DNA from: a virus
IMG/VR virus record: IMGVR_UViG_3300012176_000002
Span: 1-53,473 of that record
Direction: 5' to 3' (one strand)
Length of the DNA stretch: 53,473 nt
The first letter of the stretch is position 1, and the number at the start of each line of letters is the position of its first letter. A program made the translations under genes and the position numbers. Of this stretch, positions 7,983 to 52,146 are shown in pieces. The notes under the pieces are model-generated. The model was not told the DNA's origin. It ran no database searches and was given only the letters and a program-made list of their open reading frames with translations.

Positions 7983-8000
7983 ATAGAATAATGGTTTTAT
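7983..8000. repeat. Junction repeat ATAGAA-TAATGG-TTTTAT
   Basis: Member of the ATRAAA-N6-(W)TYYAT family; overlaps the stop of 7997..8554. Confidence 0.6.
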
Positions 8001-8554
8001 TTAAATAATTTCTTGTACTTATTTGCACCGTGATTTTTACCATAGTTTAAAATTTCTTTGATCATTTTCTTTTCACCACCGCAAACATGCATATAGTTAT
8101 TCATGTATCCAATCATTTTATTTGTCATATATCGTTTGTTATTTTCACTATTACGTCCATATATTTTATTCCATTTCATCCGTGTATCCCATCCATTTAG
8201 ATGATGAGGGATACTATACATAGCTTCAAATTCTTCACAAGCAGACTTTTCTTGCAACTTTGCATCAAGTTCGGAAAAATCACTTTTAAAAAGCAATTCT
8301 TCAACCAAATCTTTTGCTATCTGTAACCGATCTCTTGCCCCTATTCTACATGGAAATGAAACATAATTACTCACAAATTCACCGTTGTTAATAACCCAAA
8401 AATATGTTTCTCCTTCTGTGTTGAAAATTTCGTCCTCGTAATATACTTGTATAGGGCAATCGTATTTTATATACTCATGGGGCTTAAGTATCTCATACAC
8501 TAATTCCATTTGAGGATACCATTGTCTCATTTGTTTCAATGATGTTGCCTTCAA
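7997..8554 (-). CDS. Hypothetical protein
   Basis: 185-aa ORF with GGAGG RBS. Confidence 0.7.
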   Translation of the reverse strand: MKATSLKQMRQWYPQMELVYEILKPHEYIKYDCPIQVYYEDEIFNTEGETYFWVINNGEFVSNYVSFPCRIGARDRLQIAKDLVEELLFKSDFSELDAKLQEKSACEEFEAMYSIPHHLNGWDTRMKWNKIYGRNSENNKRYMTNKMIGYMNNYMHVCGGEKKMIKEILNYGKNHGANKYKKLFK

Positions 8555-8740
8555 TTCTCATACTCCTCCTTAATTTTAATCTTTTTAAAATGAGAGTTTA
8601 TTCGAACTTATGGGCAGTAGATGTCAAGATGTTCCCAATATGCGTCCTCTACTTCATCCTCATCTTGATTTTCTTGTTCCGCTTTAGTAACGGGACTCAT
8701 GGTTTGTTCACAATGACAAGATCTTTCTAATGGCATCAAG

Positions 8741-9289
8741 TTAATCACATCCCTCCTGATATGGTGAAGATACTCGACCGACTTTCATTTGCAATTCATA
8801 TGCCTGCACCTTACCTTGTAAAAATCTAGTTTCTAACTGCAAATTATTGGTATTAGCAATCAATTCTTCTATAGATATTGATTTGTCTCGTTCCGATTGT
8901 AACTGATATTTCAGTTCGGCTATGCGGTCATTGAGGACTTGAGATGGATATGATAAAGATGATTTGATTTCATTAATGGCAATAGACACATCGCTTAATC
9001 GTGCAAGTTCCTTTTTACATACAGTCAATTCATCCACAGCATTTTTAACCTCAATTTTCAATTTTTCCATTTGATCCTTTTGCTGTTTAGCCTTATTTTC
9101 ATAGCTGGTAATGGTACGGTGTAATTGTTCCATATCTGACTTATGCATTCTTGCTTCTGAATCTTTGATGTCTATAGTTTTTTTATAATCTTCCATTCTC
9201 TTTTGTTGATCTTCAACTTGTGTTATTAATTCTGCTTTACTCGGCATTTTACCACTCCAATCTTTCTCCGTAGTTACCTCCAATCCCAT
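8741..9289 (-). CDS. Coiled-coil protein
   Basis: Heptad-like, K/E/Q-rich sequence. Confidence 0.65.
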   Translation of the reverse strand: MGLEVTTEKDWSGKMPSKAELITQVEDQQKRMEDYKKTIDIKDSEARMHKSDMEQLHRTITSYENKAKQQKDQMEKLKIEVKNAVDELTVCKKELARLSDVSIAINEIKSSLSYPSQVLNDRIAELKYQLQSERDKSISIEELIANTNNLQLETRFLQGKVQAYELQMKVGRVSSPYQEGCD

Positions 9290-9300
9290 TTTCTATATGA

Positions 9301-9519
9301 TCAAATATCATCAATTAGTGTAGGATTTTCAACACTATACTCAGAAGGACAATTTATCATGCATTCTTCATAATCTATTTTTGGTGCAAACCTATAACAT
9401 TTTTCCATCGATTCAACCCATTGATAAAAATCACTTTTAAATTTAATCGGAATCATAAACCAATGATAATCATTATCTTGAATAAAACAATATTTCATAT
9501 TTTTTTTATCCCCTCTCAA
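9301..9519 (-). CDS. Hypothetical phage protein
   Basis: QDNDYHWFMIP motif; start probably MKYCF. Confidence 0.6.
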   Translation of the reverse strand: MRGDKKNMKYCFIQDNDYHWFMIPIKFKSDFYQWVESMEKCYRFAPKIDYEECMINCPSEYSVENPTLIDDI

Positions 9520-9775
9520 CCCATTTCTTAACTGTTACTTCTCTTAACTCCACCTCTGTGCATTCAACATCATCATCGTATTCCCAAGGACTTTCATCCT
9601 GTGCTTCAGTGGCTCCCTCCCCGTAATATGTGGAATAGAATACCCCATTGTTCTCAAAAATAATTTTGTGATGAATTGTCCACCTTCCCGTATCTACAAT
9701 TTCATCATGAATCGCACTCCCCGGTAAATCTAGTTCATTAATTAAATAATCCTTACTGAATACTTTTTTAGCCAT
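9506..9775 (-). CDS. Phage hypothetical protein
   Basis: GRW...GATEAQDESPWE motif; RBS GGAGG. Confidence 0.7.
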   Translation of the reverse strand: MAKKVFSKDYLINELDLPGSAIHDEIVDTGRWTIHHKIIFENNGVFYSTYYGEGATEAQDESPWEYDDDVECTEVELREVTVKKWVERG

Positions 9776-10691
9776 TTTGTATATCCTCCTCAGATATTAT
9801 TCCCCACCCCATACAATGAGAGCACTCTTTATAGTCTTTATTAATTTCACGCATTAAATCTTCAAGGTATTCACTTACTTTTTTCTCCAGATCAAGATAA
9901 TTTATTCCGCAAATTGATGGTGCAAGGACACAATCTTTTCCATAATCAGATGAACTAGATTTATTTTTCAGATTAAGAATCGTCTGTTTTTTATCTGTTA
10001 TATTCTTCGTGACCCATCTAGGTTTTCTTCTTTTATCTCCTTTGTTTTCATCGTAAGAATATTGATATGGATCTGCCAAAAGTATCTTCTTCACTACTTC
10101 AAAATGAAAATCATAATCGGAAGAAATGTCTGCATATCTTTTGTCAATATGTAATTTCACATGATTTCTAATTATGCTATACATCTGCTCACTCGCAACG
10201 AAACACGGCTTGTCACATAACACGGATGGATGATATTGAATTTTATCTAAAAGGTAATTCTCAGCGTATAATTTGTTCTCAACAAAGCTAAAATCTTCTT
10301 TGTCATATATGACGTTAATTTCGAATTTAATATCCTCGTATCCACCATCTTCTTCATCATAGGCTCTCTTATATAGCCCAGAGACTTCTTCATACTCTTC
10401 CCCAAGTTTATCAACAACTATCGTCTTGGGCATGATATCACTTGGAGTATAACCGTCTTTCAACTCATACCTAATGTTGATCTGCTTATTAGGTAGTTTT
10501 CTTTGAATTTTTGTAGGTAGTACTGATAACTTAAACCAATTGTTCTGATATGTCTTCTCTGCAGCCGCCCCATCAAATAATAAATATTCAATCATTGGTA
10601 ATCCATAATTATTTTTATTCTTGCCGGTTTGTATATAAACGCATTTTGCGGTTATTATAACGTCATATTGAATTGGTGCATTATCGCTCAT
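9768..10691 (-). CDS. Phage hypothetical protein with C-terminal CxxCxGxG
   Basis: 307-aa ORF containing ISSDYDFHFEV and CSHCMGWG. Confidence 0.75.
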   Translation of the reverse strand: MSDNAPIQYDVIITAKCVYIQTGKNKNNYGLPMIEYLLFDGAAAEKTYQNNWFKLSVLPTKIQRKLPNKQINIRYELKDGYTPSDIMPKTIVVDKLGEEYEEVSGLYKRAYDEEDGGYEDIKFEINVIYDKEDFSFVENKLYAENYLLDKIQYHPSVLCDKPCFVASEQMYSIIRNHVKLHIDKRYADISSDYDFHFEVVKKILLADPYQYSYDENKGDKRRKPRWVTKNITDKKQTILNLKNKSSSSDYGKDCVLAPSICGINYLDLEKKVSEYLEDLMREINKDYKECSHCMGWGIISEEDIQNG

Positions 10692-10990
10692 TCTCTCTCC
10701 TCTTGATCATTTAGTTCAACGCTAAGTTCTATATCGTATTTCAAATCATCTTTGAATATGGTCTTATCCCATATGAAAAACTCCCCCACCAATAAATTGG
10801 CATCATCATCAAATTCTAAATCTTTCATCGCTACTCCGATTGGAATGCCAGTCGCTTCTTTCCGGTAGTCAATCAATGGCACATGTTTGCTATTCTGTAA
10901 CGCTTTTTCTATAACATCTTTTGAAATATATCTGTAGTCACTATTAATCCCCAAAGGAATTCGAACTTTTAATGTTATTAATTGATCCAT
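10688..10990 (-). CDS. Hypothetical protein resembling a prohead protease-like N-terminal domain
   Basis: N..YISKDVIEKAL...VPLI...PIGV pattern. Confidence 0.5.
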   Translation of the reverse strand: MDQLITLKVRIPLGINSDYRYISKDVIEKALQNSKHVPLIDYRKEATGIPIGVAMKDLEFDDDANLLVGEFFIWDKTIFKDDLKYDIELSVELNDQEERE

Positions 10991-11082
10991 TTTCCCCCTT
11001 TTACATTCCGGTGGTATTATCGATGATTAAATCATTTATCATGTCTCTATATCCAAAAGGACTATCTATACTTGGATATTGT

Positions 11083-11226
11083 TTAATTAGTATTTCTTTC
11101 CCATAATTCGCAATGATGTTCTGGTGGAGCCATATAATCATCTGCATCACAAGCATATTGCTGTGGATTTTCACATTTCTCATATCGTTCGTCCCAATGT
11201 TCACATGTCTTGCAAATTTCTTTCAT
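11083..11226 (-). CDS. Small Cys-rich protein (47 aa, not in ORF track)
   Basis: GGAGG RBS; translates as MKEICKTCEHWDERYEKCENPQQYACDADDYMAPPEHHCELWERNTN. Confidence 0.6.
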   Translation of the reverse strand: MKEICKTCEHWDERYEKCENPQQYACDADDYMAPPEHHCELWERNTN

Positions 11227-11373
11227 TACGTATTCCTCCTTGCTATTCAATTATTAGTGACATATTAGTAACAAAAATCATCTATAATGTGTAGTTATTC
11301 CAATCGGCAAAGAAAACATCTTTTTTAATTGCTTCATTTTCAACACTTATTGTTTCCCCCGCGTACTTTATTT

Positions 11374-12015: not shown

Positions 12016-12053
12016 TATTAATCATCCTTTCATATTTTAATAAATAATAGTTA

Positions 12054-12587: not shown

Positions 12588-12619
12588 ATTTTGTTTGCTT
12601 TAATAATTACATGCAAGAG

Positions 12620-13362: not shown

Positions 13363-13388
13363 CTCCCTTCTTTATCAACACTCCCTCA

Positions 13389-13406
13389 ATGAAATCATTC
13401 TTCTAT
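13389..13406. repeat. Junction repeat ATGAAA-TCATTC-TTCTAT
   Basis: Intergenic, upstream of the RBS of 12907..13362. Confidence 0.65.
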
Positions 13407-14256: not shown

Positions 14257-14754
14257 TTAAATGAAATTATGATTTCGTTTTAGTTTATAGTGAGTTCCAT
14301 CTTTAATGCGTTCCAACTCATCTTCAGCCCACTTCAATTTTCTCTGCAATGAATTAATCTCATCGATTTGCTTGTTTAAAAGCTTCTCCTTTGATCTCTT
14401 TGCCTCTTTATCTACCCAATATAAATGAGCTCCGGAGTATCCCCAACTATCAGTAGCTACACGATAAACATTATTGTCCTCATACTCATCAGCTTCATCA
14501 TCCCCAATACGCTTAACGCTAGTAAAGTCAAAAATAAATTCAAATTCATCAATATTTTGGTCGGATAAAGTGTAGGTATTACCATCGCCAAAATATGTAT
14601 CGACCATATATATCTCACCATTATACTCGTGCGGTTTAAATGTCCAGTTCTTGCAATGATACATATCAGAACCATAGACCCTATATTTATCGGGTTCATG
14701 TTTATATAAACCCGTGAGGATAATTCTGTTTTTATTAGTATTTGATAACATCAC
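14257..14754 (-). CDS. Hypothetical protein
   Basis: 165-aa ORF with RBS. Confidence 0.65.
   Translation of the reverse strand: MMLSNTNKNRIILTGLYKHEPDKYRVYGSDMYHCKNWTFKPHEYNGEIYMVDTYFGDGNTYTLSDQNIDEFEFIFDFTSVKRIGDDEADEYEDNNVYRVATDSWGYSGAHLYWVDKEAKRSKEKLLNKQIDEINSLQRKLKWAEDELERIKDGTHYKLKRNHNFI
14261..14278. repeat. Junction repeat ATGAAA-TTATGA-TTTCGT
   Basis: At the 3' end of 14257..14754, just upstream of the next RBS. Confidence 0.65.
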
Positions 14755-17179: not shown

Positions 17180-17197
17180 ATGAATTTAACAATTCAT
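17180..17197. repeat. Junction repeat ATGAAT-TTAACA-ATTCAT (perfect inverted arms)
   Basis: Intergenic, upstream of an RBS. Confidence 0.7.
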
Positions 17198-18577: not shown

Positions 18578-18595
18578 ATAAAATCCTTATTCAAT
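18578..18595. repeat. Junction repeat ATAAAA-TCCTTA-TTCAAT
   Basis: Intergenic, upstream of the rnhA RBS. Confidence 0.6.
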
Positions 18596-18694
18596 CGCTC
18601 TAATTATCCGGTGAGAAGCTTCTACTTTTTTACCCTTCTATTGTTTAATATGCGTAAAAACTTCTCAATCGAATAGGGGTAAAGTGAAGAAAAA

Positions 18695-29218: not shown

Positions 29219-29236
29219 ATGAAATGCGAATTCTAA
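29219..29236. repeat. Junction repeat ATGAAA-TGCGAA-TTCTAA
   Basis: Overlaps the stop of 29233..29472 at the upstream edge of the replication module. Confidence 0.65.
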
Positions 29237-29472: not shown

Positions 29473-29690
29473 CCTGTTTCTCCTTTCCCAGTCAAGCCGC
29501 CGATGAGTAAAAACGCCAACCATATACAGGTAGCAATGCTCCAGTTGAAACTGATTCCTAAAATTATTGTTACTACTTTTACGAGTCCGCAGAAAATTAT
29601 CCAATTTAAAGACACGGTTAGACATAGCATTAATATGAAAAATAATAACTTAACTACGAAAACAGCAATTTTTTCTAGTTTTTTATTCAA
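29466..29690 (-). CDS. Small membrane protein
   Basis: Two hydrophobic segments. Confidence 0.6.
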   Translation of the reverse strand: MNKKLEKIAVFVVKLLFFILMLCLTVSLNWIIFCGLVKVVTIILGISFNWSIATCIWLAFLLIGGLTGKGETGW

Positions 29691-30144
29691 TCTTCCCCAG
29701 CCTCCCACATTCCTCTACCCTGTGAAATTTGTTTGCAAAAGGTAGTATGGCATTGCGTACTGCAATAAACTCTGGGTCATCGCATTGCATGGAACATAAG
29801 TGATATGCAATCTGTCTAGCAATGCGTACATCAATTTTTATATGTAAACCCCCACACCATAACGGAAGACAGGAAAAATCAATGTCCGCGCCACCAAGAT
29901 CTGCATCCCGAAGATCTGCTCTCCATAGTTCTGCTTCCCGAAGGTCAGCAGTTCGAAGGTCAGCACCCCGAAGGTCGGCATTATGAAGGTCGGAAACCCG
30001 AAGGTCGATATTATGAAGGTCAGCGCCCCGAAGGTCAATATTGTGAAGGTCAGCATATTGCAAGTCATATTCCCTTAGTTTAGTTATATTTTCACCTTCT
30101 ATGAGTTTAAAAACCTTATTTCTATCAAATGGTTTTAATTCCAT
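29683..30144 (-). CDS. Pentapeptide repeat protein
   Basis: A(D/N)LxG-type repeats with 15-bp DNA periodicity; C-terminal PLWCG. Confidence 0.9.
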   Translation of the reverse strand: MELKPFDRNKVFKLIEGENITKLREYDLQYADLHNIDLRGADLHNIDLRVSDLHNADLRGADLRTADLREAELWRADLRDADLGGADIDFSCLPLWCGGLHIKIDVRIARQIAYHLCSMQCDDPEFIAVRNAILPFANKFHRVEECGRLGKIE

Positions 30145-31968: not shown

Positions 31969-32005
31969 CGGTTCCTCCCTTTTAAATTTAAATGAATTGT
32001 CCAAT

Positions 32006-33211
32006 TTATACACTTTTCACCGTCTGTCTTGTCATTCCGTTGCTCTTATAAATCTTTTCAATACAACCAAGACTTGATGACAATTCTTCTACGGGCAATC
32101 CATTTTTCGAGCCATCCATAATAGTATTATCGGTTTCATCTAAATGAGTAACCGCAAGACTATATTTAACTTTCCTACCTTTTATCTTATCAATATCTTT
32201 TTTGACTGTCTTGACAAATAACTCTTTATCAAAGTAGCCGTATCTAAAATCGCCTTGAAACTCGTTATAGTGATTTGTTAAATCCACAAGATTTTCACCT
32301 ATATCTACCTTTTGGCATTCCGTTGGGAAAGCGCCTGCCCCATGTCGCGTCATATAAGAACGTGTAATGTAGCAAATTTCAACATCATTGAACTTATCCC
32401 AATCAGCTCCTAAGTAATAAAGGGCAGTAAGTACATTGTCTATTCCTGTGTTCGATGGTGTTAAGTTAGGGAAGAACGCCTTATTGTTTTTATCCAATAA
32501 CAAACCCTGAGACCCTTCAAACACTAATGTATTGAATTTGTCTAAAATTTCATCCCCAACAATTTCACAGTAGTTCAGCATTTCGTTGAATTGCCTAATA
32601 TAATTTCTTTGAATCGTTTTGTTATTAAGTAATTCCATGTCTTGCAAAGAGATATTTTTTACGCCCAACTCTTTTAATCTATCTACCGAATACTCTGCCC
32701 TCACTGTATCCATGAAGTCATCCATATATGAATTTATATGAGCATTCGAAACTGTGTTGTCAATATTTAGAGTTTTGTTTCTTACAAGTGTTTCATTAAT
32801 TCCCAGACCACAACTGCCGTGTCTGTTATCGCCCCTATATCTTTCAATCATTTGATTAACCATCATATCAAAGGGCAATGTAATCTTGCATTGTGGATGT
32901 AAGTAAACTTTTGGCTTAATACCAAGCTTAACTAATTTATTATATTCCTTCCAAAAGATGATTGGATTTACTATGAAATCCTTATTAAGATAAGTGGCAA
33001 CATTATTATTTAGAATACCTGCACCAAAATGACTAAATACATGCCTTACTCCATCTGGAGTAACCACAGTATGCCCTGCCTGTGAGCCGCCACAAAATCT
33101 TATGTTGAGAGCATCTTCTATAAAGGACTTTTGATTACAGAAATAATCCGTCATCAGTCCCTTGCCCTCGTCCCCGAAATTAGTTCCAATTAATATTTTT
33201 ATCTTTTTCAT
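32006..33211 (-). CDS. Divergent adenylosuccinate synthetase (PurA)-like ligase
   Basis: GDEGKG, GGSQAGHT, EGSQG and YMTRHGAGAFPTE motifs; Asp-binding loop replaced. Confidence 0.85.
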   Translation of the reverse strand: MKKIKILIGTNFGDEGKGLMTDYFCNQKSFIEDALNIRFCGGSQAGHTVVTPDGVRHVFSHFGAGILNNNVATYLNKDFIVNPIIFWKEYNKLVKLGIKPKVYLHPQCKITLPFDMMVNQMIERYRGDNRHGSCGLGINETLVRNKTLNIDNTVSNAHINSYMDDFMDTVRAEYSVDRLKELGVKNISLQDMELLNNKTIQRNYIRQFNEMLNYCEIVGDEILDKFNTLVFEGSQGLLLDKNNKAFFPNLTPSNTGIDNVLTALYYLGADWDKFNDVEICYITRSYMTRHGAGAFPTECQKVDIGENLVDLTNHYNEFQGDFRYGYFDKELFVKTVKKDIDKIKGRKVKYSLAVTHLDETDNTIMDGSKNGLPVEELSSSLGCIEKIYKSNGMTRQTVKSV

Positions 33212-35296: not shown

Positions 35297-35326
35297 TTAG
35301 CCCCCTCCTTCCACTAATATATTTGA

Positions 35327-35344
35327 ATGAAACTGGCAATTCAT
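35327..35344. repeat. Junction repeat ATGAAA-CTGGCA-ATTCAT
   Basis: Between the sigma factor gene and the J-domain operon. Confidence 0.65.
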
Positions 35345-35359
35345 AGTCCCCTGGTTACA

Positions 35360-35893
35360 CTATTCCTGACTGAACTCTATGTATTTATTCCGAACCTTTT
35401 TCATAATCTGCTGAACGCGGGATTTAGATAATCCTTCTACTATAGCAACATCACCATTAGAAAACCCATTCATTTTCATCAGTAGCACTTTTACCTCTCT
35501 ATTTCTTAATATGCGTAAAAAATCTAAAATCGAATAGTGGGAAATGACATTTTTTTCAAAATAATTTTCATCAGGGATTAAATCAATTAGTGGAACCTTC
35601 CTGCCCTCTAAAAACCGCTCTGTAGATAATGATAAAACAGCACTATTCATTTTCCTTTTAAGACTTTTCTCTTTCCTTATTTCATCAACAATAGAGTCAT
35701 GAATATATTTGCAGGCGCGTTCCTCAAATCCTCCCAACTCTTCGTTATAATTCATTGCAGCCTTGCACAATCCTTCCGCTGCCGCACCATAATAATCATC
35801 ATGGTTTCGGTATGGAATTTTCATATGCTTAAGAGACCTTGCAATGAGATAGTGGGAATCTTCCACCAGTTTGCTTTGATTATCAGTTAAAAT
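35360..35893 (-). CDS. Phage sigma70-family RNA polymerase sigma factor, probable ATT start
   Basis: Region 2 (AAEGLCKAAMNY...F...A...I) and region 4 HTH (GFSNGDVA...SKSRVQQI); ATT at 35893 is 8 nt after GGAGG. Confidence 0.85.
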   Translation of the reverse strand: MLTDNQSKLVEDSHYLIARSLKHMKIPYRNHDDYYGAAAEGLCKAAMNYNEELGGFEERACKYIHDSIVDEIRKEKSLKRKMNSAVLSLSTERFLEGRKVPLIDLIPDENYFEKNVISHYSILDFLRILRNREVKVLLMKMNGFSNGDVAIVEGLSKSRVQQIMKKVRNKYIEFSQE

Positions 35894-35982
35894 ATCCTTG
35901 TCCTCCTAAATTTAAGTTTACAAAATCGAGGTATCTAATCGATACCGTAAAAATCGTTTGTTCTAATGGAATTCTGTGGTAA

Positions 35983-36024
35983 TTAGTCAATCGTGTTCTG
36001 TGATGCAGACCGCCAAATCCGCAT
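35983..36024 (-). promoter_or_regulatory. Bipartite RNA motif copy 1 (UUGGCG-loop hairpin + GAACAC..UGACUAA)
   Basis: AUGCGGAU-UUGGCG-GUCUGCAU, then CAGAACACGAUUGACUAA; upstream of the sigma gene. Confidence 0.6.
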
Positions 36025-36644
36025 TATTTTTCCATTATAAGATCAACATTACAACTGCCGCATTTAATAGCTTTGTTAATTTTTGCTTTCACTGCAAGGC
36101 CGCATTTGGGACACCTATACTCAAATGTCTTTTTCTCCCGTGGCTTTGCTTCCTTTTTAGCACTACTAACGCGAAAATACTCAAATGCTTCTGGATCAGG
36201 CCTAATGATGTCCTCTATGTACGATAATAGTTCCGTATCTGGCGTAGTAAAACCCCACCCATATTTATCGCTCTTTTCACAAATGAGTCCTACACTTTCG
36301 GCAAGTACTTTGAATTTCTTATTATGCTTTTGGCCATTACAGTCTTTTACGTCATTGAGTTTGTTTGAAAAGTGAACCATTTCATGGTGCAGAGTAGAAA
36401 CGATACCGGAGGCCGGTCTGTTTAGATTTACTGGATTGATGTTGATTTCGTAAAGAGAATTTTCTTCCTTATCTTTTTCTTCAGTCTTCTTCCACGCTTT
36501 GTATAAAGTAAAATGCCCCAAACTGTTCGCTCTTGATTTCTGAATTGTTATCATTGGGTGCGGGAGCTGCCCGTCATAGTATCTTTCATTTAACATATCA
36601 AAAACTCTATATAACTCTGTGGTTGTCTTAACTATTGTATTCAA
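36024..36644 (-). CDS. SprT-like zinc metalloprotease with C-terminal Zn ribbon
   Basis: LHHEMVH, HNKKFK, CPKC...CGSC. Confidence 0.85.
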   Translation of the reverse strand: MNTIVKTTTELYRVFDMLNERYYDGQLPHPMITIQKSRANSLGHFTLYKAWKKTEEKDKEENSLYEININPVNLNRPASGIVSTLHHEMVHFSNKLNDVKDCNGQKHNKKFKVLAESVGLICEKSDKYGWGFTTPDTELLSYIEDIIRPDPEAFEYFRVSSAKKEAKPREKKTFEYRCPKCGLAVKAKINKAIKCGSCNVDLIMEK

Positions 36645-36662
36645 TTTAAGCTCCTTTTCTTT

Positions 36663-36680
36663 ATAAAATAATCATTTTAA
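36663..36680. repeat. Junction repeat ATAAAA-TAATCA-TTTTAA
   Basis: Upstream of the SprT-like gene RBS. Confidence 0.6.
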
Positions 36681-36961
36681 TGTGGCTGGATTTATTCTGT
36701 GACGGGGGTAGGGGCTTTAAAGCTTCGATAGAAGTCAAGTGCATCATTCCAAGCGATTTCTGGTGTAGCAGCCCATCCGCAGCAGTCATTACACCAGTCG
36801 TTGCCAGTGTTAGACCACAGAATCCAATAATATGGCTTTTGTAAATTGTTCTCTGACTTTGCTGAGACGGACACTTCAATTTTGTATGCAAATTTCAAAT
36901 AAAACACCGCCTTTGTATATATTGTTATCCATATGATGATACCCCCTTACCCCATGCTCAA

Positions 36962-36979
36962 ATGAAACTTAGAATCTAT
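36962..36979. repeat. Junction repeat ATGAAA-CTTAGA-ATCTAT
   Basis: Overlaps the stop of 36976..37485. Confidence 0.65.
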
Positions 36980-40406: not shown

Positions 40407-40410
40407 CTGC

Positions 40411-40482
40411 TGGCGAGATTGAACTTGAACCAACACATTTTAGGAATCAAAATCCTACGCCTTGCCATTTGGCAACACTCGA
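40411..40482 (-). tRNA. Degenerate tRNA-Gln(TTG), possible pseudogene
   Basis: Gln-type GCCAAATGGCAAGGC D arm and TAGGA-TTTTGAT-TCCTA anticodon arm; weak T stem and a shortened acceptor 3' strand. Confidence 0.65.
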
Positions 40483-41124: not shown

Positions 41125-42036
41125 TTAGACGTATTTAACCCAGTCTTTATATTGATTTTTGAATGAAGCAAAATTCAGATGATATCCATATTCCTCAAAA
41201 AGTGCACTATATTTTTTCCCATTCCTTGGACGACTTATCATATCATGCAGAAGATCATACTTCATCTCTCTTGATCTTTTTTTAATATGATTGAATAAAC
41301 CAGATCTTTCAAGCGCTGACTTTGTGATTTTATCATCACCAATGCAATTTGCGATCGGTCTTGACAACCAGTATCGAAATCGGGGGTATACATTCCCACT
41401 TTTTGCAACTGGAAACCTCCAGACGGAATCTGGATACATGCAATAATCAAGTTTTGTTATCCGCTGGGATGCCAATTCCACCACATCCGCAGACTTTGTA
41501 AGAAGATAAATCAGTCTATCGCTAATCTTTCTTCTGCTTCCATCTTTTAATTTTATGGTCTTTGTGGCGCGGTCGATATCCGATAATCTCATATGCATTA
41601 AATTATCCCAATTTTCCCCTGCTATATTTTCATAGCAAGATAAAATGATGGAAGAAAAATAGTATGGATTATCAGTCTTGTCCAGAGTGGTGATTATTTC
41701 CTCAAGGTATTCAGGAGATATATAATAATTTTCGTCCCTTGCTCCCCAGATCTCATATAAAAACTCATCCGGCGTGACTCTTTTATCCATCTGATTAATT
41801 TTGCACAGACCTCTTGCGCGGCACCATTCGATATACGTAAATAATTTCTTACGGTAAAGATCAAGAGTTTTTTTCGCCAACCCCTGAGTTGCCAAGTTCG
41901 CAATCTCATTAATATCCATGTTGCAAATGTCTTTACCTAGAGTTCTCTCCCATGCTTCAAATAAATCGAAGAATTCCTCGTATGAAGAGTCCCCTACAAA
42001 AGAAATAAATTCAAATTTTTGTTGTTCGTTATACAT
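41125..42036 (-). CDS. MrpR/YopR-like lysogeny master repressor (degenerate tyrosine-recombinase fold)
   Basis: MYNEQQKFEF...E...GKDIC..EI N-terminus, recombinase-like core lacking the catalytic R and HxxR, ending LERSG; has its own promoter. Confidence 0.7.
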   Translation of the reverse strand: MYNEQQKFEFISFVGDSSYEEFFDLFEAWERTLGKDICNMDINEIANLATQGLAKKTLDLYRKKLFTYIEWCRARGLCKINQMDKRVTPDEFLYEIWGARDENYYISPEYLEEIITTLDKTDNPYYFSSIILSCYENIAGENWDNLMHMRLSDIDRATKTIKLKDGSRRKISDRLIYLLTKSADVVELASQRITKLDYCMYPDSVWRFPVAKSGNVYPRFRYWLSRPIANCIGDDKITKSALERSGLFNHIKKRSREMKYDLLHDMISRPRNGKKYSALFEEYGYHLNFASFKNQYKDWVKYV

Positions 42037-42065: not shown

Positions 42066-42094
42066 AGTATATATTTTTCTAGATGTTTTGTCAA
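42066..42094 (-). promoter_or_regulatory. SigA promoter for the MrpR-like gene
   Basis: TTGACA, 17 bp, TATACT. Confidence 0.75.
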
Positions 42095-42104
42095 TAACAA
42101 AGTT

Positions 42105-42560
42105 TTAAGCTGCAAAATTGCCGTTGCTCTTAAGAGCTGCGGCTATGACGTTATTAAAGCTTTGCAGTCCTAACTTTTTAATTAGCCGCACTACCTCATT
42201 TTCTGCATTCCTGCCGAATTGGACATCAATAATACAGTGAATGCTTTCCCTAATATCCACGTTACTGATAAATCCGATGTTTTCTTTTATTCTACCTCTA
42301 TCCACGGGACAAATACTTTCGCCTAAGATTGTTGTAGAACCATCCAGTCCGTGTGATTTTGCCGTATACTCATTTAGATGAAGATGTGTCGGCAAATTGT
42401 TGTGTGTATGAGTCATAGGTATAACTGTTAATACTGGGCTGTAATTATTGCACTTATCATTAGAATATACTATAGCTGGTCTTATTCCTCCTTGTAGTTT
42501 GCTTTGAGGATTTTTTGGAAAGTCTATCCAATAAATTCCCCACTGTCTAATTGTCATCAA
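42105..42560 (-). CDS. PemK/MazF-family endoribonuclease-like protein (no adjacent antitoxin)
   Basis: GIYWIDF...QGGIRPAIVYSND..N..SP...VIPMT. Confidence 0.85.
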   Translation of the reverse strand: MMTIRQWGIYWIDFPKNPQSKLQGGIRPAIVYSNDKCNNYSPVLTVIPMTHTHNNLPTHLHLNEYTAKSHGLDGSTTILGESICPVDRGRIKENIGFISNVDIRESIHCIIDVQFGRNAENEVVRLIKKLGLQSFNNVIAAALKSNGNFAA

Positions 42561-42589: not shown

Positions 42590-42618
42590 ATTATACCACC
42601 CCTCTCGCTATTTGTCAA
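42590..42618 (-). promoter_or_regulatory. Consensus SigA promoter for the PemK/MazF-like gene
   Basis: TTGACA, 17 bp, TATAAT with extended TGn. Confidence 0.85.
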
Positions 42619-42641
42619 CAGAAATATTTTAGATTGCAAAA

Positions 42642-43406
42642 TTAATTATACTCTTGTTCGACTTCCTGCGTCCCAATATTTAATGAATTATACATCTCCT
42701 TTTCATCCTCCAGAGTCAGTCCAATATATTTGAGAGTATCTGTAATTTTACTGTGTCCTAATACGTACTGCAGCATAGTTAAAGCATGTGATTTATCTGT
42801 AGCTTTTTTATAACACCAAAAAGCGAAGGTCTTTCTGAGGCTATGGCTGCTTAAATTTTGCCTTATACCGCTCTCTTCTCCCGCTTTCTTAATGATATTC
42901 CCGATTGTTTTTCTTGTAATATTTTCTCCCTTTTTGCTGAGGAAAATATATTCATCAAGGTTTAGAATTTCTTTACAGTTCAACGATAAGAAATCCCTAT
43001 ATTCATTTAAAGCTGACATAAACGCTTCATTATATATAATGTCAACATACTTGCCGGTTTTCCTTGTTTTGTATGGCTTTATTCTTTGCTCTTTTTTGTA
43101 TTCCCAATTAGAGTCAAATACGTCTCCCCATTTTAGAGCCGATATATCAGATCCACGAATTCCAATGTTGATTCCACAAACAAATAACGCTTTGTCTCTT
43201 CTAGCCACCCTTCCATTCGTTGGTGTTTCGGCATTCTCAATTCTTTTGTCAAAATATGAGAGCATGCGGCTTATTTCTTTCTCTGTGCGGAGAGCATATA
43301 CTAAGTTGCTATTACCCTTTTGGGGAGACTTAACCACTCTTATCTTGCTATTATTGCTCTTGTTTTTCTTAAATTTTTCGGGGTACATTACTTTTTCAGC
43401 GTTCAT
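42642..43406 (-). CDS. Second tyrosine recombinase (catalytic domain only, catalytic residues intact)
   Basis: GIRGSD, KTGK, HSLRKTF, LGHS, TLKYIG. Confidence 0.9.
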   Translation of the reverse strand: MNAEKVMYPEKFKKNKSNNSKIRVVKSPQKGNSNLVYALRTEKEISRMLSYFDKRIENAETPTNGRVARRDKALFVCGINIGIRGSDISALKWGDVFDSNWEYKKEQRIKPYKTRKTGKYVDIIYNEAFMSALNEYRDFLSLNCKEILNLDEYIFLSKKGENITRKTIGNIIKKAGEESGIRQNLSSHSLRKTFAFWCYKKATDKSHALTMLQYVLGHSKITDTLKYIGLTLEDEKEMYNSLNIGTQEVEQEYN

Positions 43407-46178: not shown

Positions 46179-46271
46179 AGGCAAGGAAATATTTTAATGC
46201 CTTTCATCGGATCAGGACTCAGTTTCTCCCCCTCTTCCTTATGAAACCCCACTTTTATTCACTCTCAACCA

Positions 46272-47326: not shown

Positions 47327-47481
47327 AATAGGAATTGAATTCTGAAATCGAATCCTTCAATTCTCCGGGATCGCAGCTCATTTTGATTCCATCCCGTTCC
47401 AATAAATAATAGCCGCTGCAATGAGTGATATTAACATCCCCTCTTAACATTTTTATTCTTTCATCCTCCTATTCAAGTAAT

Positions 47482-47511
47482 AAAAAACCCGTACACTCTA
47501 TGCATACGGGG
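47482..47511 (-). terminator. Rho-independent terminator
   Basis: CCCGTATGC-ATAGA-GTGTACGGG followed by TTTTTT. Confidence 0.8.
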
Positions 47512-48155
47512 TATAATCTGTCTTACATTGCTTCACCAAAGATACAAGGACATTAGGTCGCAAGATTAAAAATGGGCGCACAGCCCAAGCGTGGGAATAG
47601 AAGTCATAGGTAACACTTCCATTTAAGTTGACGCACAGAACGAAACCATCCCCGTATGGAGTAGACAACCACATATAAGAGGGGGTCGATATAATACATA
47701 TTATTTAGGTAAATATCATAGGTTATAATCCCAAAAAGGTCGCCCCTGCACGGCATATGCGCTCCAGAGTTATTAAAACTCATTAAATCAATCTCTACCG
47801 GAACAAATGCATTTTCCCCCAATACTTCCAATGCAACCTTTGACGGGACGCATTCATTTGCTACTCTTCTGGCGTGACTGTCGATGTAATTATTAGATTT
47901 CTCGCCAAACGGAATGTTTTTGATCTCATGTTCTTTATCCAGTAAAAAATAGACACCATCATCATTACTATAGAATTCTGTCCATGTGTAGTTACCTAGC
48001 TTGATGGACTCCCTTAGGTTCACCTCCCCTGCTTCGATTTTGTTTTTGTTTATTCCTTCTGACTCATTGTTTCTTTCTCTTATAACCACTTCAAGCAACT
48101 CCTTGACGGCGGCATATATCTCAACAACCTTTTCTTCTATTTCTTTATTCTCCAT
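47498..48155 (-). pseudogene. DUF6273-like (CLec-fold) gene, frameshifted at a C5 run
   Basis: Removing one base at 47681-47685 restores MWLSTPYG..VLCVNLNG...WAVRPFLIL, the family's C-terminal WxxTP...VRP signature. Confidence 0.7.
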
Positions 48156-48167
48156 AAAATTCCCCTT

Positions 48168-48464
48168 CTATTCACAGTCAACTATCGCAACATAATCAAC
48201 AAAAGGTTTTTCGTGAACAATACCAAAATATAATACACTTTCTCCCGTTTTTTGTTCAAAATATTTTATTGATTCTTCAAATCTATCCATTTCAACACTT
48301 CTAGTAACTGTATTCTTAAATATATCGTAAGAAATAGTACCTCCCAAATATTTATAAAATTTCACAAGTGCATCCGCATAAAAGCTATCTTTAATTTTTA
48401 ATACAGTCACATCGTTACCCAAATTTCTACTTGTAACAAATAAATACTCTTTTGTCTGTGCCAT
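48168..48464 (-). CDS. Hypothetical protein
   Basis: ORF with GGAGG RBS. Confidence 0.6.
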   Translation of the reverse strand: MAQTKEYLFVTSRNLGNDVTVLKIKDSFYADALVKFYKYLGGTISYDIFKNTVTRSVEMDRFEESIKYFEQKTGESVLYFGIVHEKPFVDYVAIVDCE

Positions 48465-48940
48465 TAACTTCCTCCTTTAAACAGAACTTCCATTTGCTGC
48501 AAATTCTTATCTAATCTTTCATTTAATCTCTTGCACTCATTGGAAGCATCATCTAGAGTAAAATGAATATAAGCAATTCCATCTGGATATTCTTTGTTCA
48601 CAGAATAAGCCTTATAATAATTCGACATATCCGTCCAAAATCTAAAATATTTACCGTCTTCTGTTCTATCAATTTTTACTATTATTACAGGATGCTTGTT
48701 TACAACCCACTGCTTATTTGTTTTCTTGTGAACACCCTTTCCACCACATTCGGGACACTCTTCGTTTACTTCTCCAAGTTTGTAACAACGCCCACATACA
48801 ACTTGCTTGGTAAAATCACTCAGCCTTATCGTAAACGCAGATAAAAAATTATGTTCGCTAATTCCAAAATTTTTTATTACAGATTTAAGAATCTTGTTTT
48901 CCTCTTTAAGCTTCTGATATCCAATCCATAAATCATCCAT
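48464..48940 (-). CDS. Hypothetical protein with CxxC..CxxCxGxG Zn finger
   Basis: CGRC...CPECGGKG; C-terminal ECKRLN. Confidence 0.65.
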   Translation of the reverse strand: MDDLWIGYQKLKEENKILKSVIKNFGISEHNFLSAFTIRLSDFTKQVVCGRCYKLGEVNEECPECGGKGVHKKTNKQWVVNKHPVIIVKIDRTEDGKYFRFWTDMSNYYKAYSVNKEYPDGIAYIHFTLDDASNECKRLNERLDKNLQQMEVLFKGGS

Positions 48941-48971
48941 ATATTATCTCTCCTTCAAATTGATTAAAACT

Positions 48972-49262
48972 TTACTCATAATATTTACACTCATCTCCAC
49001 CATGATAAATACCGTCTTCATAAATGCAATCGCCGGGATCGTCAGGGCCATTATTACAAAGACAATCTTCGATATGACGATGCCACCTACAAGGTTTAGG
49101 AATAGCCTCAAAATCTAAATCTTTTACGTCATCCATATCTGGCAATTCAGAACCATCACGATTATATCGTTTATCAGCAATTTGTAATGCTTCTTCTTTT
49201 GAATTTGCCTCGATTCTAACATACCCTTCCAATGATTGTATAATTTTTACATCGTATTTCAT
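48972..49262 (-). CDS. DpnD/PcfM-like small protein with Cys-rich tail
   Basis: MKYDVKI...VRIEANSKEEAL. Confidence 0.6.
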   Translation of the reverse strand: MKYDVKIIQSLEGYVRIEANSKEEALQIADKRYNRDGSELPDMDDVKDLDFEAIPKPCRWHRHIEDCLCNNGPDDPGDCIYEDGIYHGGDECKYYE

Positions 49263-49277
49263 AACTCTTGTTCCTCC

Positions 49278-49556
49278 TCACAATTTCATATTGTGTTCTT
49301 TTTCATAATTCATCAATTCTTTCAAAGCGTCATCTTGTCGTTGCAATAATTCTGGATTTTGAGCACAAGACAAAATTCTTGAAGCGTCATCAAATATCTT
49401 GACCAATAAATCATATTCTTCCAGTTCTTCAATTGAATTTAACCCATAGTGTTTTGCCTCGCACAATTTAATTTCATTTATATCGCTTGATTCTTTCTTG
49501 CACTTCTCGCAAACATACATTGTGTAACGTCGCATTATTTCACCTCGTCCTCTCAA
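49278..49556 (-). CDS. Hypothetical protein
   Basis: YVCEKC...CEAKH. Confidence 0.6.
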   Translation of the reverse strand: MRGRGEIMRRYTMYVCEKCKKESSDINEIKLCEAKHYGLNSIEELEEYDLLVKIFDDASRILSCAQNPELLQRQDDALKELMNYEKEHNMKL

Positions 49557-49563
49557 TTTTAAT

Positions 49564-49581
49564 ATAAAATCCGCTGTCTAT
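49564..49581. repeat. Junction repeat ATAAAA-TCCGCT-GTCTAT
   Basis: Intergenic. Confidence 0.6.
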
Positions 49582-49584
49582 GTG

Positions 49585-49914
49585 TTATCTAAGTTTCTTC
49601 TCATCAAATTTGTCAAACGTTATCTTGGTGTGGCCGCTTTGCATTTTCCCGTTCTTGAAGTATTTAATCCATATATCCCCACGGATTTCTCCTTCCCCGT
49701 ATAATTCAAAAACGATATCTGGATATTTTATTGATAGCTTCCTCATATCTGTTTCATGATCATGCCAAAAATTTGATATAACACGCCACTCTCCATCGTC
49801 ATCAATTGCGTATTTTAACCATTCAAATTCATCTTCTGAGGCATCATCTGAAATCTCGATTATATCCTTATCAGAATCGTATGTACGTAATGTATAAGTT
49901 GTGTTGTATCCCAT
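49585..49914 (-). CDS. Phage hypothetical protein
   Basis: MGYNTTY...W.DHE.DM..LS.KYP...F.LYGEGE..GD.W...F.NG. Confidence 0.7.
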   Translation of the reverse strand: MGYNTTYTLRTYDSDKDIIEISDDASEDEFEWLKYAIDDDGEWRVISNFWHDHETDMRKLSIKYPDIVFELYGEGEIRGDIWIKYFKNGKMQSGHTKITFDKFDEKKLR

Positions 49915-49940
49915 TTTACATTCTCCTTTTATATTTTTCA

Positions 49941-49958
49941 ATGAAACCCGTAATTTAT
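49941..49958. repeat. Junction repeat ATGAAA-CCCGTA-ATTTAT
   Basis: Intergenic, upstream of an RBS. Confidence 0.65.
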
Positions 49959-49968
49959 ACACATTTTA

Positions 49969-50784
49969 TCAAGCAATTAATACTCTTATATTTTCTTTGC
50001 TAAGCATTTTGCATACCAAATAACCAACATATCCATCCACTAAAACATTATTCTTATCAATAATAATATCTCTATCAAGCTTATTGTTCTTTTTGTAAAA
50101 ATCATAACATTCCTTGATTTTATCTGTGTTTGGCATGGTTGATTTAAAACAACTTGATATTTGAATATCTTTTAAGTCAATCCTCTTAACTGGTCGATTG
50201 CGCTTATCACATTCTGCTTGAGCCAATTCCTTCGAACAAAATATATTCATTTCTGATGGATTATATTTATTTCCAAGTGCTTGTCTTACACTATATTTTA
50301 TGTAATAATTCTCCTTAGAATATGCTTTTATTCGCATTTCTGTAACTTTAAACAAATCATCTATTACACACCATGTTTTAGTATCGCTTAATATTACTTT
50401 TCCTTTCCCATTACAACAAGGGCACTTAATTTTTGCTTGTGTCATGGGATTATCAATAGTACATTCCCCATTACACATAGCACACTGTATCTCAGTTGGG
50501 CTTTCTTTAATTAAATAAACCTCATCTCCAAAATCAAATTTAGAATCAAATGTCTTTGTTATCATCGTATTAACTCCTCTTTTAATAAGTTTATATTCTC
50601 CATCAATAGAAACACGCCATATCTGGTTTAACTTACCAATCTCAACATTAAATCCGACATCATAGTCTAATAATCCATTGCCGTTTTTCTTTTTAGTAAC
50701 AACACCCACGTGTCCATCTGCTCCCATTGCACCTAAGCCACCATTTAATATTTTTATTGTATCGCCAACATTATATTTATTCAT
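49969..50784 (-). CDS. Multi-domain protein: SH3-like N-terminus, DnaJ-type Zn finger, ParB-like C-terminus
   Basis: CAMCNG...CPCCNGKG; IDKNNVLVDGY. Confidence 0.6.
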   Translation of the reverse strand: MNKYNVGDTIKILNGGLGAMGADGHVGVVTKKKNGNGLLDYDVGFNVEIGKLNQIWRVSIDGEYKLIKRGVNTMITKTFDSKFDFGDEVYLIKESPTEIQCAMCNGECTIDNPMTQAKIKCPCCNGKGKVILSDTKTWCVIDDLFKVTEMRIKAYSKENYYIKYSVRQALGNKYNPSEMNIFCSKELAQAECDKRNRPVKRIDLKDIQISSCFKSTMPNTDKIKECYDFYKKNNKLDRDIIIDKNNVLVDGYVGYLVCKMLSKENIRVLIA

Positions 50785-50819
50785 ATGTTTGTTCTCCTTT
50801 TTATTTTTTATATTTGTAA

Positions 50820-50837
50820 ATAAAACTACAATTCTAT
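50820..50837. repeat. Junction repeat ATAAAA-CTACAA-TTCTAT
   Basis: Overlaps the stop of 50834..51193. Confidence 0.65.
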
Positions 50838-51193
50838 ACACATTTTGATTTATACAAGAAACCAGATTCAAGCGGAATACGAACCACTGTATTACCCCTA
50901 TAAGAGAAGGTTATATTATCATTACCGTTACAATAACAAGGATAGCAAGTATCAGTATAAATTGTATCAAAATCACATTGTAATGGACGTTTTTTTGCTT
51001 CATCATTAAGTAAATGACAAAAGTTATGAAACCAAATTATTTCATAATATCGGCCCAACACTTCAAATTTCAACGTCCTCGAAAAACTAATGCCATCTTT
51101 GTCTTCCCACTTAACATTATCAGCAACTTTTGACATAAATTCGTAAAGAGATTCTTTTGTATGTGTATTTTCATTTTCAGCTTTCCACTGCAT
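50834..51193 (-). CDS. Hypothetical protein
   Basis: ORF with GGAGG RBS. Confidence 0.65.
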   Translation of the reverse strand: MQWKAENENTHTKESLYEFMSKVADNVKWEDKDGISFSRTLKFEVLGRYYEIIWFHNFCHLLNDEAKKRPLQCDFDTIYTDTCYPCYCNGNDNITFSYRGNTVVRIPLESGFLYKSKCV

Positions 51194-51338
51194 TATTTAT
51201 CCTCCTTCTTAGGGATTAAATATCCTTCCAAAACATAATATTTTTGATTATTTTGTAATATTTCTTCCATCTCATCACATAACCTTAATGCTTCTAATGT
51301 CCCCTCAATACGTACTACTTCCCATATTGTGTATGGTT

Positions 51339-51662
51339 TCATTTCAATTCCTCCAACGTATTTTTTATTAAGCTATCAACCAATTCAAGTAAACTTTCTC
51401 TACTCAAATCCCTCGTAGAAAATATCTCTGCGTCCTTTCCTGTTATGCCATCAATCAAATGTACGGAGTAATAGTATTCATCTGGCGCTAACCCCTCTTT
51501 TTCTTCTGTAATATTTACACAGACACAATTTCCATTTTCATCTTCCACAAATGAATGATAGTCGCTTAGTCTGTCGCCAGAACTGTTTATTGAAATTCCT
51601 TCCGATATATCATTCAATAAGCAAGCAACCATTTCATCAGCAGTAATCAAAACTTTATTCAT
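51339..51662 (-). CDS. Hypothetical protein
   Basis: ORF with GGAGG RBS. Confidence 0.65.
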   Translation of the reverse strand: MNKVLITADEMVACLLNDISEGISINSSGDRLSDYHSFVEDENGNCVCVNITEEKEGLAPDEYYYSVHLIDGITGKDAEIFSTRDLSRESLLELVDSLIKNTLEELK

Positions 51663-51677
51663 ACAGCCTCGCCTCCT

Positions 51678-52109
51678 CTATTTGTCACTGACAAAACAAA
51701 TCTCTTCTAAATCAACATACATGAAATATCCAATAATATTAATTCCTAAATAGTTTCCAATTATATCCGTAATCTCATCTTCATCATATACATGATGAGA
51801 ACCCTCACTATACATAGATAAAACAGGATATTCTTTTTCTATTTTCAGAGATGAATCATCTAGTAGTTCTTGCATGACTTTTTCAAAACAATCAAAATTT
51901 GTTAAAAACGCCGCTCTCTTAAAGAATCTTGTCTCCGGCTTAATATTTTTCTTTTCCTCCTGTTCCTCAAAAAATTTGCATATTGGATTACCACATTCAA
52001 TACCATTTCCATATACGCACCCCCCTTCATCATCAATATTATTATTCAATGTACATAGTTCTTCATAATATGTTCCTTTAAAAAATTTACATACTTTATT
52101 ATTATTCAT
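51678..52109 (-). CDS. Hypothetical protein with Cys-rich N-terminus
   Basis: CKFF...C...C...C...CKFF. Confidence 0.65.
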   Translation of the reverse strand: MNNNKVCKFFKGTYYEELCTLNNNIDDEGGCVYGNGIECGNPICKFFEEQEEKKNIKPETRFFKRAAFLTNFDCFEKVMQELLDDSSLKIEKEYPVLSMYSEGSHHVYDEDEITDIIGNYLGINIIGYFMYVDLEEICFVSDK

Positions 52110-52128
52110 ATTCCCTCCAATTTTTTCA

Positions 52129-52146
52129 ATGAAATCCGTCTTCTAT
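52129..52146. repeat. Junction repeat ATGAAA-TCCGTC-TTCTAT
   Basis: Between the stop at 52147 and the next RBS. Confidence 0.7.

Follow-up and report, generated by a model that had tools for sequence, protein, structure and literature searches.

The DNA studied here, called the window below, is the 53,473-nucleotide stretch from position 1 to 53,473 of IMG/VR virus record IMGVR_UViG_3300012176_000002, and it lies at the start of a virus contig of 119,764 bp, of which it makes up the initial 53.5 kb. The phage is SPbeta-like and temperate. Genes of the first ~60 kb are all on the minus strand, and the late genes past ~60 kb are on the plus strand. Within the early arm, about one quarter of the junctions between accessory genes carry an 18-bp sequence that reads, in gene orientation (minus strand), ATRRAW-N6-(R)TTTYAT, with the consensus ATAGAA-N6-RTTTCAT. 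This motif is real and oriented, lies at gene junctions, is conserved in related phages and coincides with module boundaries. The units between successive sites consist of one to five genes.

Sites were scored by a position-weight-matrix (PWM) scan of the whole genome, with scores expressed in bits. Relatives were found via the MrpR-like protein of the phage and ten further proteins; they are contigs of five to six metagenomic phages (L-numbers below), 83-100% identical where alignable and very different in their accessory genes. The window holds 13 strong and four weak sites:

52129 to 52146, minus strand: ATAGAA-GACGGA-TTTCAT (PWM 19.8); kept in L007, with an unrelated upstream gene in L006.
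50820 to 50837, minus strand: ATAGAA-TTGTAG-TTTTAT (PWM 17.5); kept in L004, L007 and L011; the upstream gene ends, in frame, at the left-arm TAG.
49941 to 49958, minus strand: ATAAAT-TACGGG-TTTCAT (PWM 19.3); 40-46 nt of extended similarity with sites 50820, 52129, 13389 and 31992.
49564 to 49581, minus strand: ATAGAC-AGCGGA-TTTTAT (PWM 16.4); kept in L007 and L032.
48154 to 48171, minus strand: ATAGAA-GGGGAA-TTTTAT (PWM 18.7); the spacer doubles as ribosome-binding site (RBS), TTTTATG includes the following start codon and the upstream gene stops at the left-arm TAG; neighbours are three unrelated upstream and two unrelated downstream proteins.
46241 to 46258, minus strand: ATAAAA-GTGGGG-TTTCAT (PWM 19.7); two upstream and four downstream protein contexts in relatives, and a further left/right combination in metagenome contig L033.
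39234 to 39251, minus strand: ATGAAA-CTAACA-TTTCAT, a perfect palindrome, found by pattern match and PWM; L007 keeps the upstream side, and the downstream gene is swapped just past the site.
36962 to 36979, minus strand: ATAGAT-TCTAAG-TTTCAT (PWM 18.7); the left-arm TAG is the in-frame upstream stop; L006 and L014 have the same spacer and downstream flank with another upstream gene, and L014 also has the same upstream flank with a different site.
36663 to 36680, minus strand: weak site TTAAAA-TGATTA-TTTTAT (PWM 8.2) before the SprT-like gene; homology with L006 and L007 begins here.
35327 to 35344, minus strand: ATGAAT-TGCCAG-TTTCAT (PWM 17.8), just past the sigma-factor gene; homology with L007 and L011 stops at its right edge, and the spacer is 5 nt in L007.
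31992 to 32009, minus strand: ATAAAT-TGGACA-ATTCAT (PWM 15.9), within the PurA-like/radical-SAM gene run; in L007 and L011, the gene that follows this spacer family is an unrelated one.
29219 to 29236, minus strand: TTAGAA-TTCGCA-TTTCAT (PWM 14.9), before the AAA_24 (Sak4-like) gene; one spacer, right arm and downstream gene are joined to three upstream flanks, each with its own left-arm variant.
18578 to 18595, minus strand: weak site ATTGAA-TAAGGA-TTTTAT (PWM 11.7); L016 keeps the upstream side and differs downstream.
17180 to 17197, minus strand: ATGAAT-TGTTAA-ATTCAT (PWM 14.4); another upstream gene in L016.
14261 to 14278, minus strand: weak site ACGAAA-TCATAA-TTTCAT (PWM 11.6); the upstream open reading frame (ORF) reads through the site.
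13389 to 13406, minus strand: ATAGAA-GAATGA-TTTCAT (PWM 17.4); three upstream by three downstream protein contexts; in the L016 counterpart a TnpB element lies within the GAATGA spacer.
7983 to 8000, minus strand: weak site ATAAAA-CCATTA-TTCTAT as read in gene orientation, with a better pattern fit on the plus strand; the left-arm TAA is the stop of gene 7997-8554.

Three more sites follow up to 55.4 kb (53605, 53976 and 55333 in genome coordinates), giving ~20 junction sites overall, and one more lies far outside the window at 118515. An initial annotation, made from the letters of the window, had listed 14 main sites. Ten of these are strong (13389, 17180, 29219, 35327, 36962, 39234, 49564, 49941, 50820 and 52129) and the other four (7983, 14261, 18578 and 36663) are real but weak; the five "weaker copies" that it added at 8585, 12040, 13423, 13925 and 47102 score below 10.5 and were discarded, and sites 31992, 46241 and 48154 had been overlooked. 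Its observation that sites are missing from the int-nrdJ-thyX block and the dnaE replication core was borne out by the scan, which found no junction site in 1-7.9 kb or 19-29 kb.

The same annotation had proposed that the sites are a non-random, co-oriented set at accessory junctions, and had called for a comparison with shuffled sequence. Its pattern, ATRAAA-N6-WTYYAT, has 12 matches (at 10 places) in the window compared with 1.47 expected, and none of 100 dinucleotide shuffles of the window reaches 12. For the junctions, 75 segments (7.5 kb in total, 67% AT) were each subjected to 500 dinucleotide-preserving shuffles. We observed 11 matches to the gene-oriented pattern in these segments compared with 0.07 expected, and no shuffle gave more than one. 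The AT-rich composition of intergenic DNA therefore does not explain the sites, and the outcome named in advance as fatal to the proposal, a lack of junction enrichment over shuffled AT-rich sequence, did not occur. In the early arm, every match with a PWM score of at least 14 is at a gene junction and in gene orientation. At a score of at least 15 there are 15 minus-strand matches versus 3 on the plus strand, and the late half of the genome has chance-level matches only, with the exception of 118515. Searches of 2.9 million viral contigs with extended and exact site patterns returned chance matches only, and a metagenome scan returned four contigs of this phage group and four unrelated ones of much higher G+C. 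As far as these searches reach, the motif is specific to this phage group.

The anatomy of a site was assessed with 44 near-non-redundant copies from this phage and its relatives. All strong sites have 6-bp arms and a 6-bp spacer, and information content outside the 6-bp arms is at background, with no conservation beyond the 18 bp. The right arm is TTTCAT in 26 copies, TTTTAT in 13 and ATTCAT in 5; this downstream arm, TTTYAT, is the better conserved one, in agreement with the asymmetry seen at the outset, and a purine occupies position 12 throughout. The left arm reads TAG at positions 2-4 in 26 copies, TGA in 10, TAA in 7 and TGG in none, so that a stop triplet is present in 43 of 44. Compared with the intergenic background, the absence of TGG has P of about 2e-4 and the preference for TAG a P of about 1e-10. 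Genes here end in TAG less often than in either of the other stop codons (21 of 93), so that the ATAGAA bias is a sequence-specific one. Of the 44 copies, 10 have this triplet as the real stop of the upstream gene, and another 6 begin no more than one base away from the end of that stop. Most sites (27 of 39) end 18-39 nt before the next start codon. The placement first described, over or after a stop codon and ahead of the next RBS, is found for the strong early-arm sites.

The two arms favour different variants, which makes the site directional: the left arm is mostly ATAGAA, whereas the complement of the right arm is never ATAGAA. Inverted arms could also reflect an RNA hairpin, but positions 3 and 16 do not co-vary and ATAGAA occurs with TTTCAT in many sites. 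This argues against a conserved hairpin or an attC-like fold and for recognition by a protein; a hairpin or RNA family was rejected on the lack of covariation together with the lack of an Rfam match. Spacers are all different within one genome.

Comparison with the relatives places the sites at the edges of exchanged modules. Among pairs of sites that share a spacer, both flanks are conserved in 25, only the downstream flank in 10, only the upstream flank in 6 and neither in 23. A protein-level check showed that members of one spacer family can lie between unrelated proteins (upstream by downstream contexts: GGGGAA 3x2, GTGGGG 2x4, GAATGA 3x3, TCGTGT 2x3). Homology blocks start at offsets of -5 to +1 relative to a site and end at +18 to +27, and exact site 18-mers are found in changed context more often than other junction 18-mers (7 of 19 versus 66 of 1082; Fisher p=1e-4). 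The block 35326-36681, containing the SprT-like gene and the sigma-factor gene, has a site at each end and is kept in L007, where both neighbouring modules differ. A short sequence is thus common to unrelated module junctions and lies at the homology breakpoints. The sites are almost the sole sequence that these otherwise unrelated junctions have in common, which argues for a role as boundary sequences. Part of the coincidence is purely geometric, since a site abuts the upstream stop codon, and a homology breakpoint marks where unrelated modules abut, not where crossovers happened.

The accessory genes of the relatives include the anti-defence genes Gad1, Apyc1 and Tad4, methyltransferases, an RtcB protein and several TnpB insertions. 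Pfam matches to Gad1, Apyc1 (anti-Pycsar) and Tad4 fall in variable slots at L015:7086-8057, L015:15752-16675, L016:12455-13195 and L007:15523-16332, which suggests that the accessory regions are counter-defence islands. TnpB (IS605-family, Cas12f-like) elements occupy a different place in each relative (L016:13893-15185, L006:11092-12528, L007:7057-8157, L014:7411-8840 and L017:3369-4484).

Mobile units made of a site, an RBS and one or more ORFs, shuffled as in an integron, had been the leading proposal of the initial annotation, and breakpoints of gene gain and loss in relatives were expected to map to the sites. Block edges and exact 18-mers in changed context do coincide with sites, but most clean indels are elsewhere. 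Of the comparisons at site-bearing junctions, 18 of 28 show a break, as do 62 of 130 at siteless ones (odds ratio 2.0, p=0.15). Nearly all of ~30 clean insertions and deletions are bordered by RBS or start-codon microhomology, lie within genes or involve TnpB elements. RBS microhomology takes the form of, for example, direct repeats of TTTAAATATTTGAGGAGG, and in this phage group it is a second joint at which genes are gained and lost, and the commoner of the two. Single small genes have been gained or lost between direct repeats of the RBS region or at a start codon (L011:5060-5424 versus window 48476; L006:3866-4095 versus window 51656). Among the relatives compared, we found no site-to-site excision or insertion and no case of two sites collapsing to one chimeric site or of the reverse. 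With few junctions carrying a site, no significant excess of breakage and no site-to-site events found, the cassette proposal is not supported; this is not an integron-like cassette system.

The proteins most relevant to what the sites might do are encoded as follows:

41125 to 42036, minus strand: candidate repressor of the MrpR family, with a recombinase fold (PF22822, E 4e-9).
42642 to 43406, minus strand: small tyrosine recombinase of 254 amino acids (PF00589, E 7e-19; phrog_216 integrase, E 6e-44).
35360 to 35866, minus strand: phage sigma factor (phrog_351, E 2e-13; no Pfam match).

Both recombinase-related predictions of the initial annotation agree with these matches. The MrpR-like protein aligns by BLASTP with SPbeta YopR at 25% identity over 166 amino acids, in the N-terminal half only (E 4e-5), and its gene has its own sigma-A-type promoter at 42094-42066. 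Its closest relatives outside the phage group, 29-34% identical and annotated as MrpR family, are in Lachnospiraceae prophages, where they lie at prophage ends beside a YonO-like polymerase and with host DNA in the flank; this affiliation suggests a clostridial host. The 254-amino-acid recombinase is apparently intact, with the catalytic Arg, His-x-x-Arg, His and Tyr all aligned to XerA, and its family matches are to the general PF00589 and phrog_216 only. The gene lies in the middle of the array, inside the lysogeny module, which also contains a PemK/MazF-like protein gene. It is kept beside the repressor gene in every relative.

We favour, with a probability of roughly 0.4, a stoperator- or SPBRE-like array of protein-binding sites, probably for the MrpR-like repressor, whose members are also boundary sequences for module exchange. 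In such an array, ~20 oriented, two-armed 18-bp elements specific to this lineage would be bound by protein between the cistrons of early accessory operons. The MrpR-like repressor would dock as two subunits on the inverted arms, with a small Xre-type regulator as second candidate for the binder, and the effect of the array would be to keep read-through transcription of the early and accessory genes silenced or gated. It would be the functional counterpart of the SPBRE of phage SPbeta, laid out like the stoperators of mycobacteriophage L5, and its sites would double as short conserved boundary sequences at which alternative modules, many of which are anti-defence genes in the relatives, begin and end exactly. 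An operator or roadblock network for the MrpR-like repressor had initially been offered as the alternative to cassettes, and it fits at least as well as they do. Arrays of repressor sites typically look like this, with directional two-armed elements in many copies at junctions, as for SPBRE/MrpR in SPbeta and the stoperators of L5 and Bxb1. Perfect ATGAAA-N6-TTTCAT palindromes number three in the genome compared with ~0.05 expected (an estimate from base composition). One of them, ATGAAA-TATATG-TTTCAT at genome 118515-118532, outside the window, has extra ATGAAA/TTTCAT half-sites nearby and sits in a 214-nt divergent promoter region between genes for a serine recombinase (280 amino acids; 117520-118362, minus) and an Xre helix-turn-helix protein (63 amino acids; 118577-118768, plus). 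This palindrome looks like an operator and is in a typical operator position.

Several observations weigh against a repressor-site array. The sites are not embedded in recognizable sigma-A promoters, unlike SPBRE: -35 and -10 elements are not conserved around them, sigma-A promoters were discarded as an explanation, and the four near-perfect promoters (46178, 42618, 42094 and 41006) are elsewhere. The sites keep to the accessory stretches of the early arm, whereas L5 stoperators cover both arms, and their fairly fixed distance of 18-39 nt to the next start codon would equally suit a promoter or an RNA-level signal. We keep our confidence at this level because of these three points, some of which would also suit a phage-specific promoter, a recombinase target or an RNA-level signal. 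A simple homodimer does not explain why the arm preferences differ, with the left arm mostly ATAGAA. Left arms are locally variable patches between close relatives, the site orthologous to 35327 in L007 has a 5-nt spacer, and weak site 36663 is precisely missing from the same junction in L011, where the downstream gene is retained; the constraint on the sites is therefore loose.

One rival is that the sites are core-type recombination sites for the 254-amino-acid recombinase, their unique 6-bp spacers serving as addresses so that co-infecting relatives swap modules in register without deleting their own genes. The inverted 6-bp arms around a 6-bp spacer have the geometry of a core site, an apparently intact extra recombinase accompanies the repressor in every relative, and homology boundaries fall at the arm edges. 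Identical spacers between unrelated genes, spacers that all differ within a genome, and the three left flanks of site 29219, each with its own left arm as expected for exchange at the arm/spacer border, are consistent with this as well. However, only 6 bp per arm are conserved, short of what specific binding would call for: recombinase core-site arms are 11-13 bp in dif and loxP, and 9-13 bp across the lambda core, dif and loxP. Rearrangement is not significantly more frequent at site junctions than at other junctions (p=0.15), RBS microhomology accounts for most indels, and the relatives compared yielded no site-to-site deletions, insertions or chimeric sites. In addition, one spacer is 5 nt long, arm variants of the TCGTGT family are not consistently linked to a flank, and the breakpoints mark abutting modules and not crossover positions. 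We regard recombination at the sites as unlikely. The fully addressed version, in which the phage tyrosine recombinase exchanges DNA only between sites of the same spacer, so that related phages or prophages could swap anti-defence and other accessory modules in register without loss of their own genes, is somewhat less probable still; the recombinase would possibly act with the MrpR-like protein as partner, which could explain the two different arms.

The sites could instead be phage-specific promoter elements read by a phage factor such as the sigma factor at 35360-35866, every accessory gene or small operon then having a start of its own. They are co-oriented with the genes, mostly end 18-39 nt before a start codon, precede early and accessory genes only and always have a purine at position 12; the phage does encode a sigma factor, and a site staying with its downstream gene is the commonest broken class (10 pairs). 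Yet dyad symmetry is unusual for a promoter, no element stands at -35 spacing, overlap with a stop codon from within the same operon is frequent, and the motif was not found before late operons. The loss of the weak site in L011 with the downstream gene kept does not fit either, and we find such promoters improbable.

Another possibility is that the sites have no regulatory role and are mere boundary sequences or footprints, at which joined recombinants are viable and on which general or phage (Sak4-type) recombination acts by homology or microhomology. The coincidence of boundaries with sites, the use of RBS microhomology for gene gain and loss in the same phages, the patchwork-like left arms and precedents in the literature (PMC3029335; PeSLs, PMC2839356) all speak for it. 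However, two specific, differing arms with a fixed 6-nt gap and a strict orientation would hardly persist unless the sequence were specifically recognized, exchange driven by homology would have very little to work with in twelve conserved bases, and neither the absence of TGG (P about 2e-4) nor the strong preference for TAG (1e-10) in the left arm is accommodated. We judge it very unlikely that the sites are boundaries and nothing else.

Least likely of all is an mRNA-level element between cistrons, such as a sequence bound by an RNA-binding protein or bound or cleaved by an endoribonuclease (the phage PemK/MazF-like protein, for instance), or a stop-linked translation signal: orientation strictly with transcription, a left-arm stop triplet in 43 of 44 copies (a real stop in 10), a position a few bases 5' of the RBS and a PemK-like gene in the lysogeny module are in its favour, but arm-arm covariation that would indicate a conserved hairpin is absent, no Rfam family matches, one perfect copy is in a promoter region and not between cistrons, and TAG is preferred though it is the rarest real stop.

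Other features of the phage were noted along the way. A tyrosine integrase gene adjoins a tRNA-derived repeat; the direct repeat AGTCCATAGGGGAATCGAA is present at both contig ends (window 105-125 and genome about 119650-119670), and its far-end copy appears to belong to a tRNA-like sequence. Together with the integrase (139-1482), these repeats look like attL and attR of a prophage in a tRNA gene. In the lysogeny module, the near-perfect promoters of the PemK-like and MrpR-like genes (window 42594-42643 and 42070-42119) share a box, AATTTTGCA(A/G)(T/C)(C/T)TAAAA, just 5' of -35, possibly a separate operator of that module. A weak second tRNA-like gene lies beside tRNA-Met at window 40410-40482 (minus); it scores 35 bits with Rfam, is not called by ARAGORN, and has an anticodon loop UUG and a mispaired acceptor stem. 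A 56-nt element with inverted ends TTTTACCC...GGGGTAAA occurs in two copies, 80% identical, one (window 18628-18683) beside site 18578 and the other (window 35489-35544) within the annotated sigma-factor ORF. Ten tandem 15-nt units at window 29882-30055 lie within ORF 29683-30144; they are probably coding repeats and not a regulatory array, since the counterpart of this ORF in L007 and L011 has a Pfam pentapeptide-repeat match. A candidate late-promoter word, AAGTCAATAGTAGTAT, has two copies only and was dropped.

Short conserved boundary sequences have long been proposed to guide the exchange of modules in mosaic phage genomes, and junctions usually lack them (PMC3029335). Many module borders of the present lineage coincide exactly with a defined 18-bp element, and the modules of the relatives hold Gad1, Apyc1 and Tad4. 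If the element is the docking site of a repressor, prophage silencing would be linked with modular exchange; if a recombinase acts on it, phages would have a new way to trade accessory genes.

Among known systems, integrons (attC/attI-IntI) share with this array co-oriented sites at the 3' ends of accessory ORFs, sometimes over the stop codon, and an encoded tyrosine recombinase. Sites of the attC type measure 57-141 bp, are recognized as folded single strands and occur once per cassette next to intI, attI and Pc. In contrast, the present sites are 18 bp long with no fold, arm covariation or flanking conservation; most junctions (all but ~1/4) are siteless, units are multi-gene, the recombinase gene does not head the array, and no cassette-type events, chimeric sites included, were seen among the relatives compared.

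The PeSLs of T4-type phages are ~100-bp units of promoter and terminator, neighbouring copies of which recombine, delete genes and release mini-circles (PMC2839356, PMC4122927). Like the present sites, they are repeated intergenic elements beside non-essential genes in hyperplastic regions, at differences in gene content. The present element differs in being 18 bp long, with no promoter hexamers and no G+C-rich stem or terminator, and recombination between two different sites was not seen among the relatives compared.

Closer in layout are the stoperators of L5 (bound by gp71) and Bxb1 (gp69), present in 24-34 intergenic copies in a single orientation (PMC3029335). At least 20 copies, short intergenic gaps, one orientation and frequent contact with stop or start codons are common to both systems. 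Stoperators are, however, asymmetric 13-bp sequences bound by a helix-turn-helix repressor and spread over both genome arms, whereas the present sites are quasi-palindromic 18-mers of the accessory early arm, do not extend genome-wide into late operons and have a presumed binder of recombinase fold.

The repeated SPBRE of SPbeta is the binding element of the master repressor MrpR/YopR, which occupies it in 10 intergenic locations (Kohm et al. 2023, PMC10516654). We derived this element from NC_001884, using the ten MrpR-bound promoters named in PMC10516654, as tAGACAAAtACAAAtAATATGTATATAAT, which contains ATACA-N7-TGTAT. The same system was not recovered in SPbeta with our PWM, which finds only AT-rich ATAAAA-N6-TTTTAT there, and the annotated SPbeta palindromes are unrelated. 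SPBRE and the present motif have no sequence similarity beyond dyad geometry. SPBRE spans ~30 bp with hardly any variation and supplies the spacer and -10 of sigma-A promoters, whereas the present sites have 12 conserved bases, a free spacer and an intra-operon position at stop codons, with no promoter hexamers, and the repressor candidate is only 25% identical to YopR, in its N-terminal half. Nevertheless, in each phage an MrpR-family protein with a tyrosine-recombinase fold is encoded next to a second recombinase-like gene. Each phage also has a repeated intergenic element ahead of early genes, and this element contains short inverted arms that enclose a spacer of 6-7 bp (ATACA-N7-TGTAT in SPbeta). 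If the sites described here are indeed docking sites of the recombinase-fold repressor, the SPBRE/MrpR principle would extend to Clostridia-type phages, in a stoperator-like layout.

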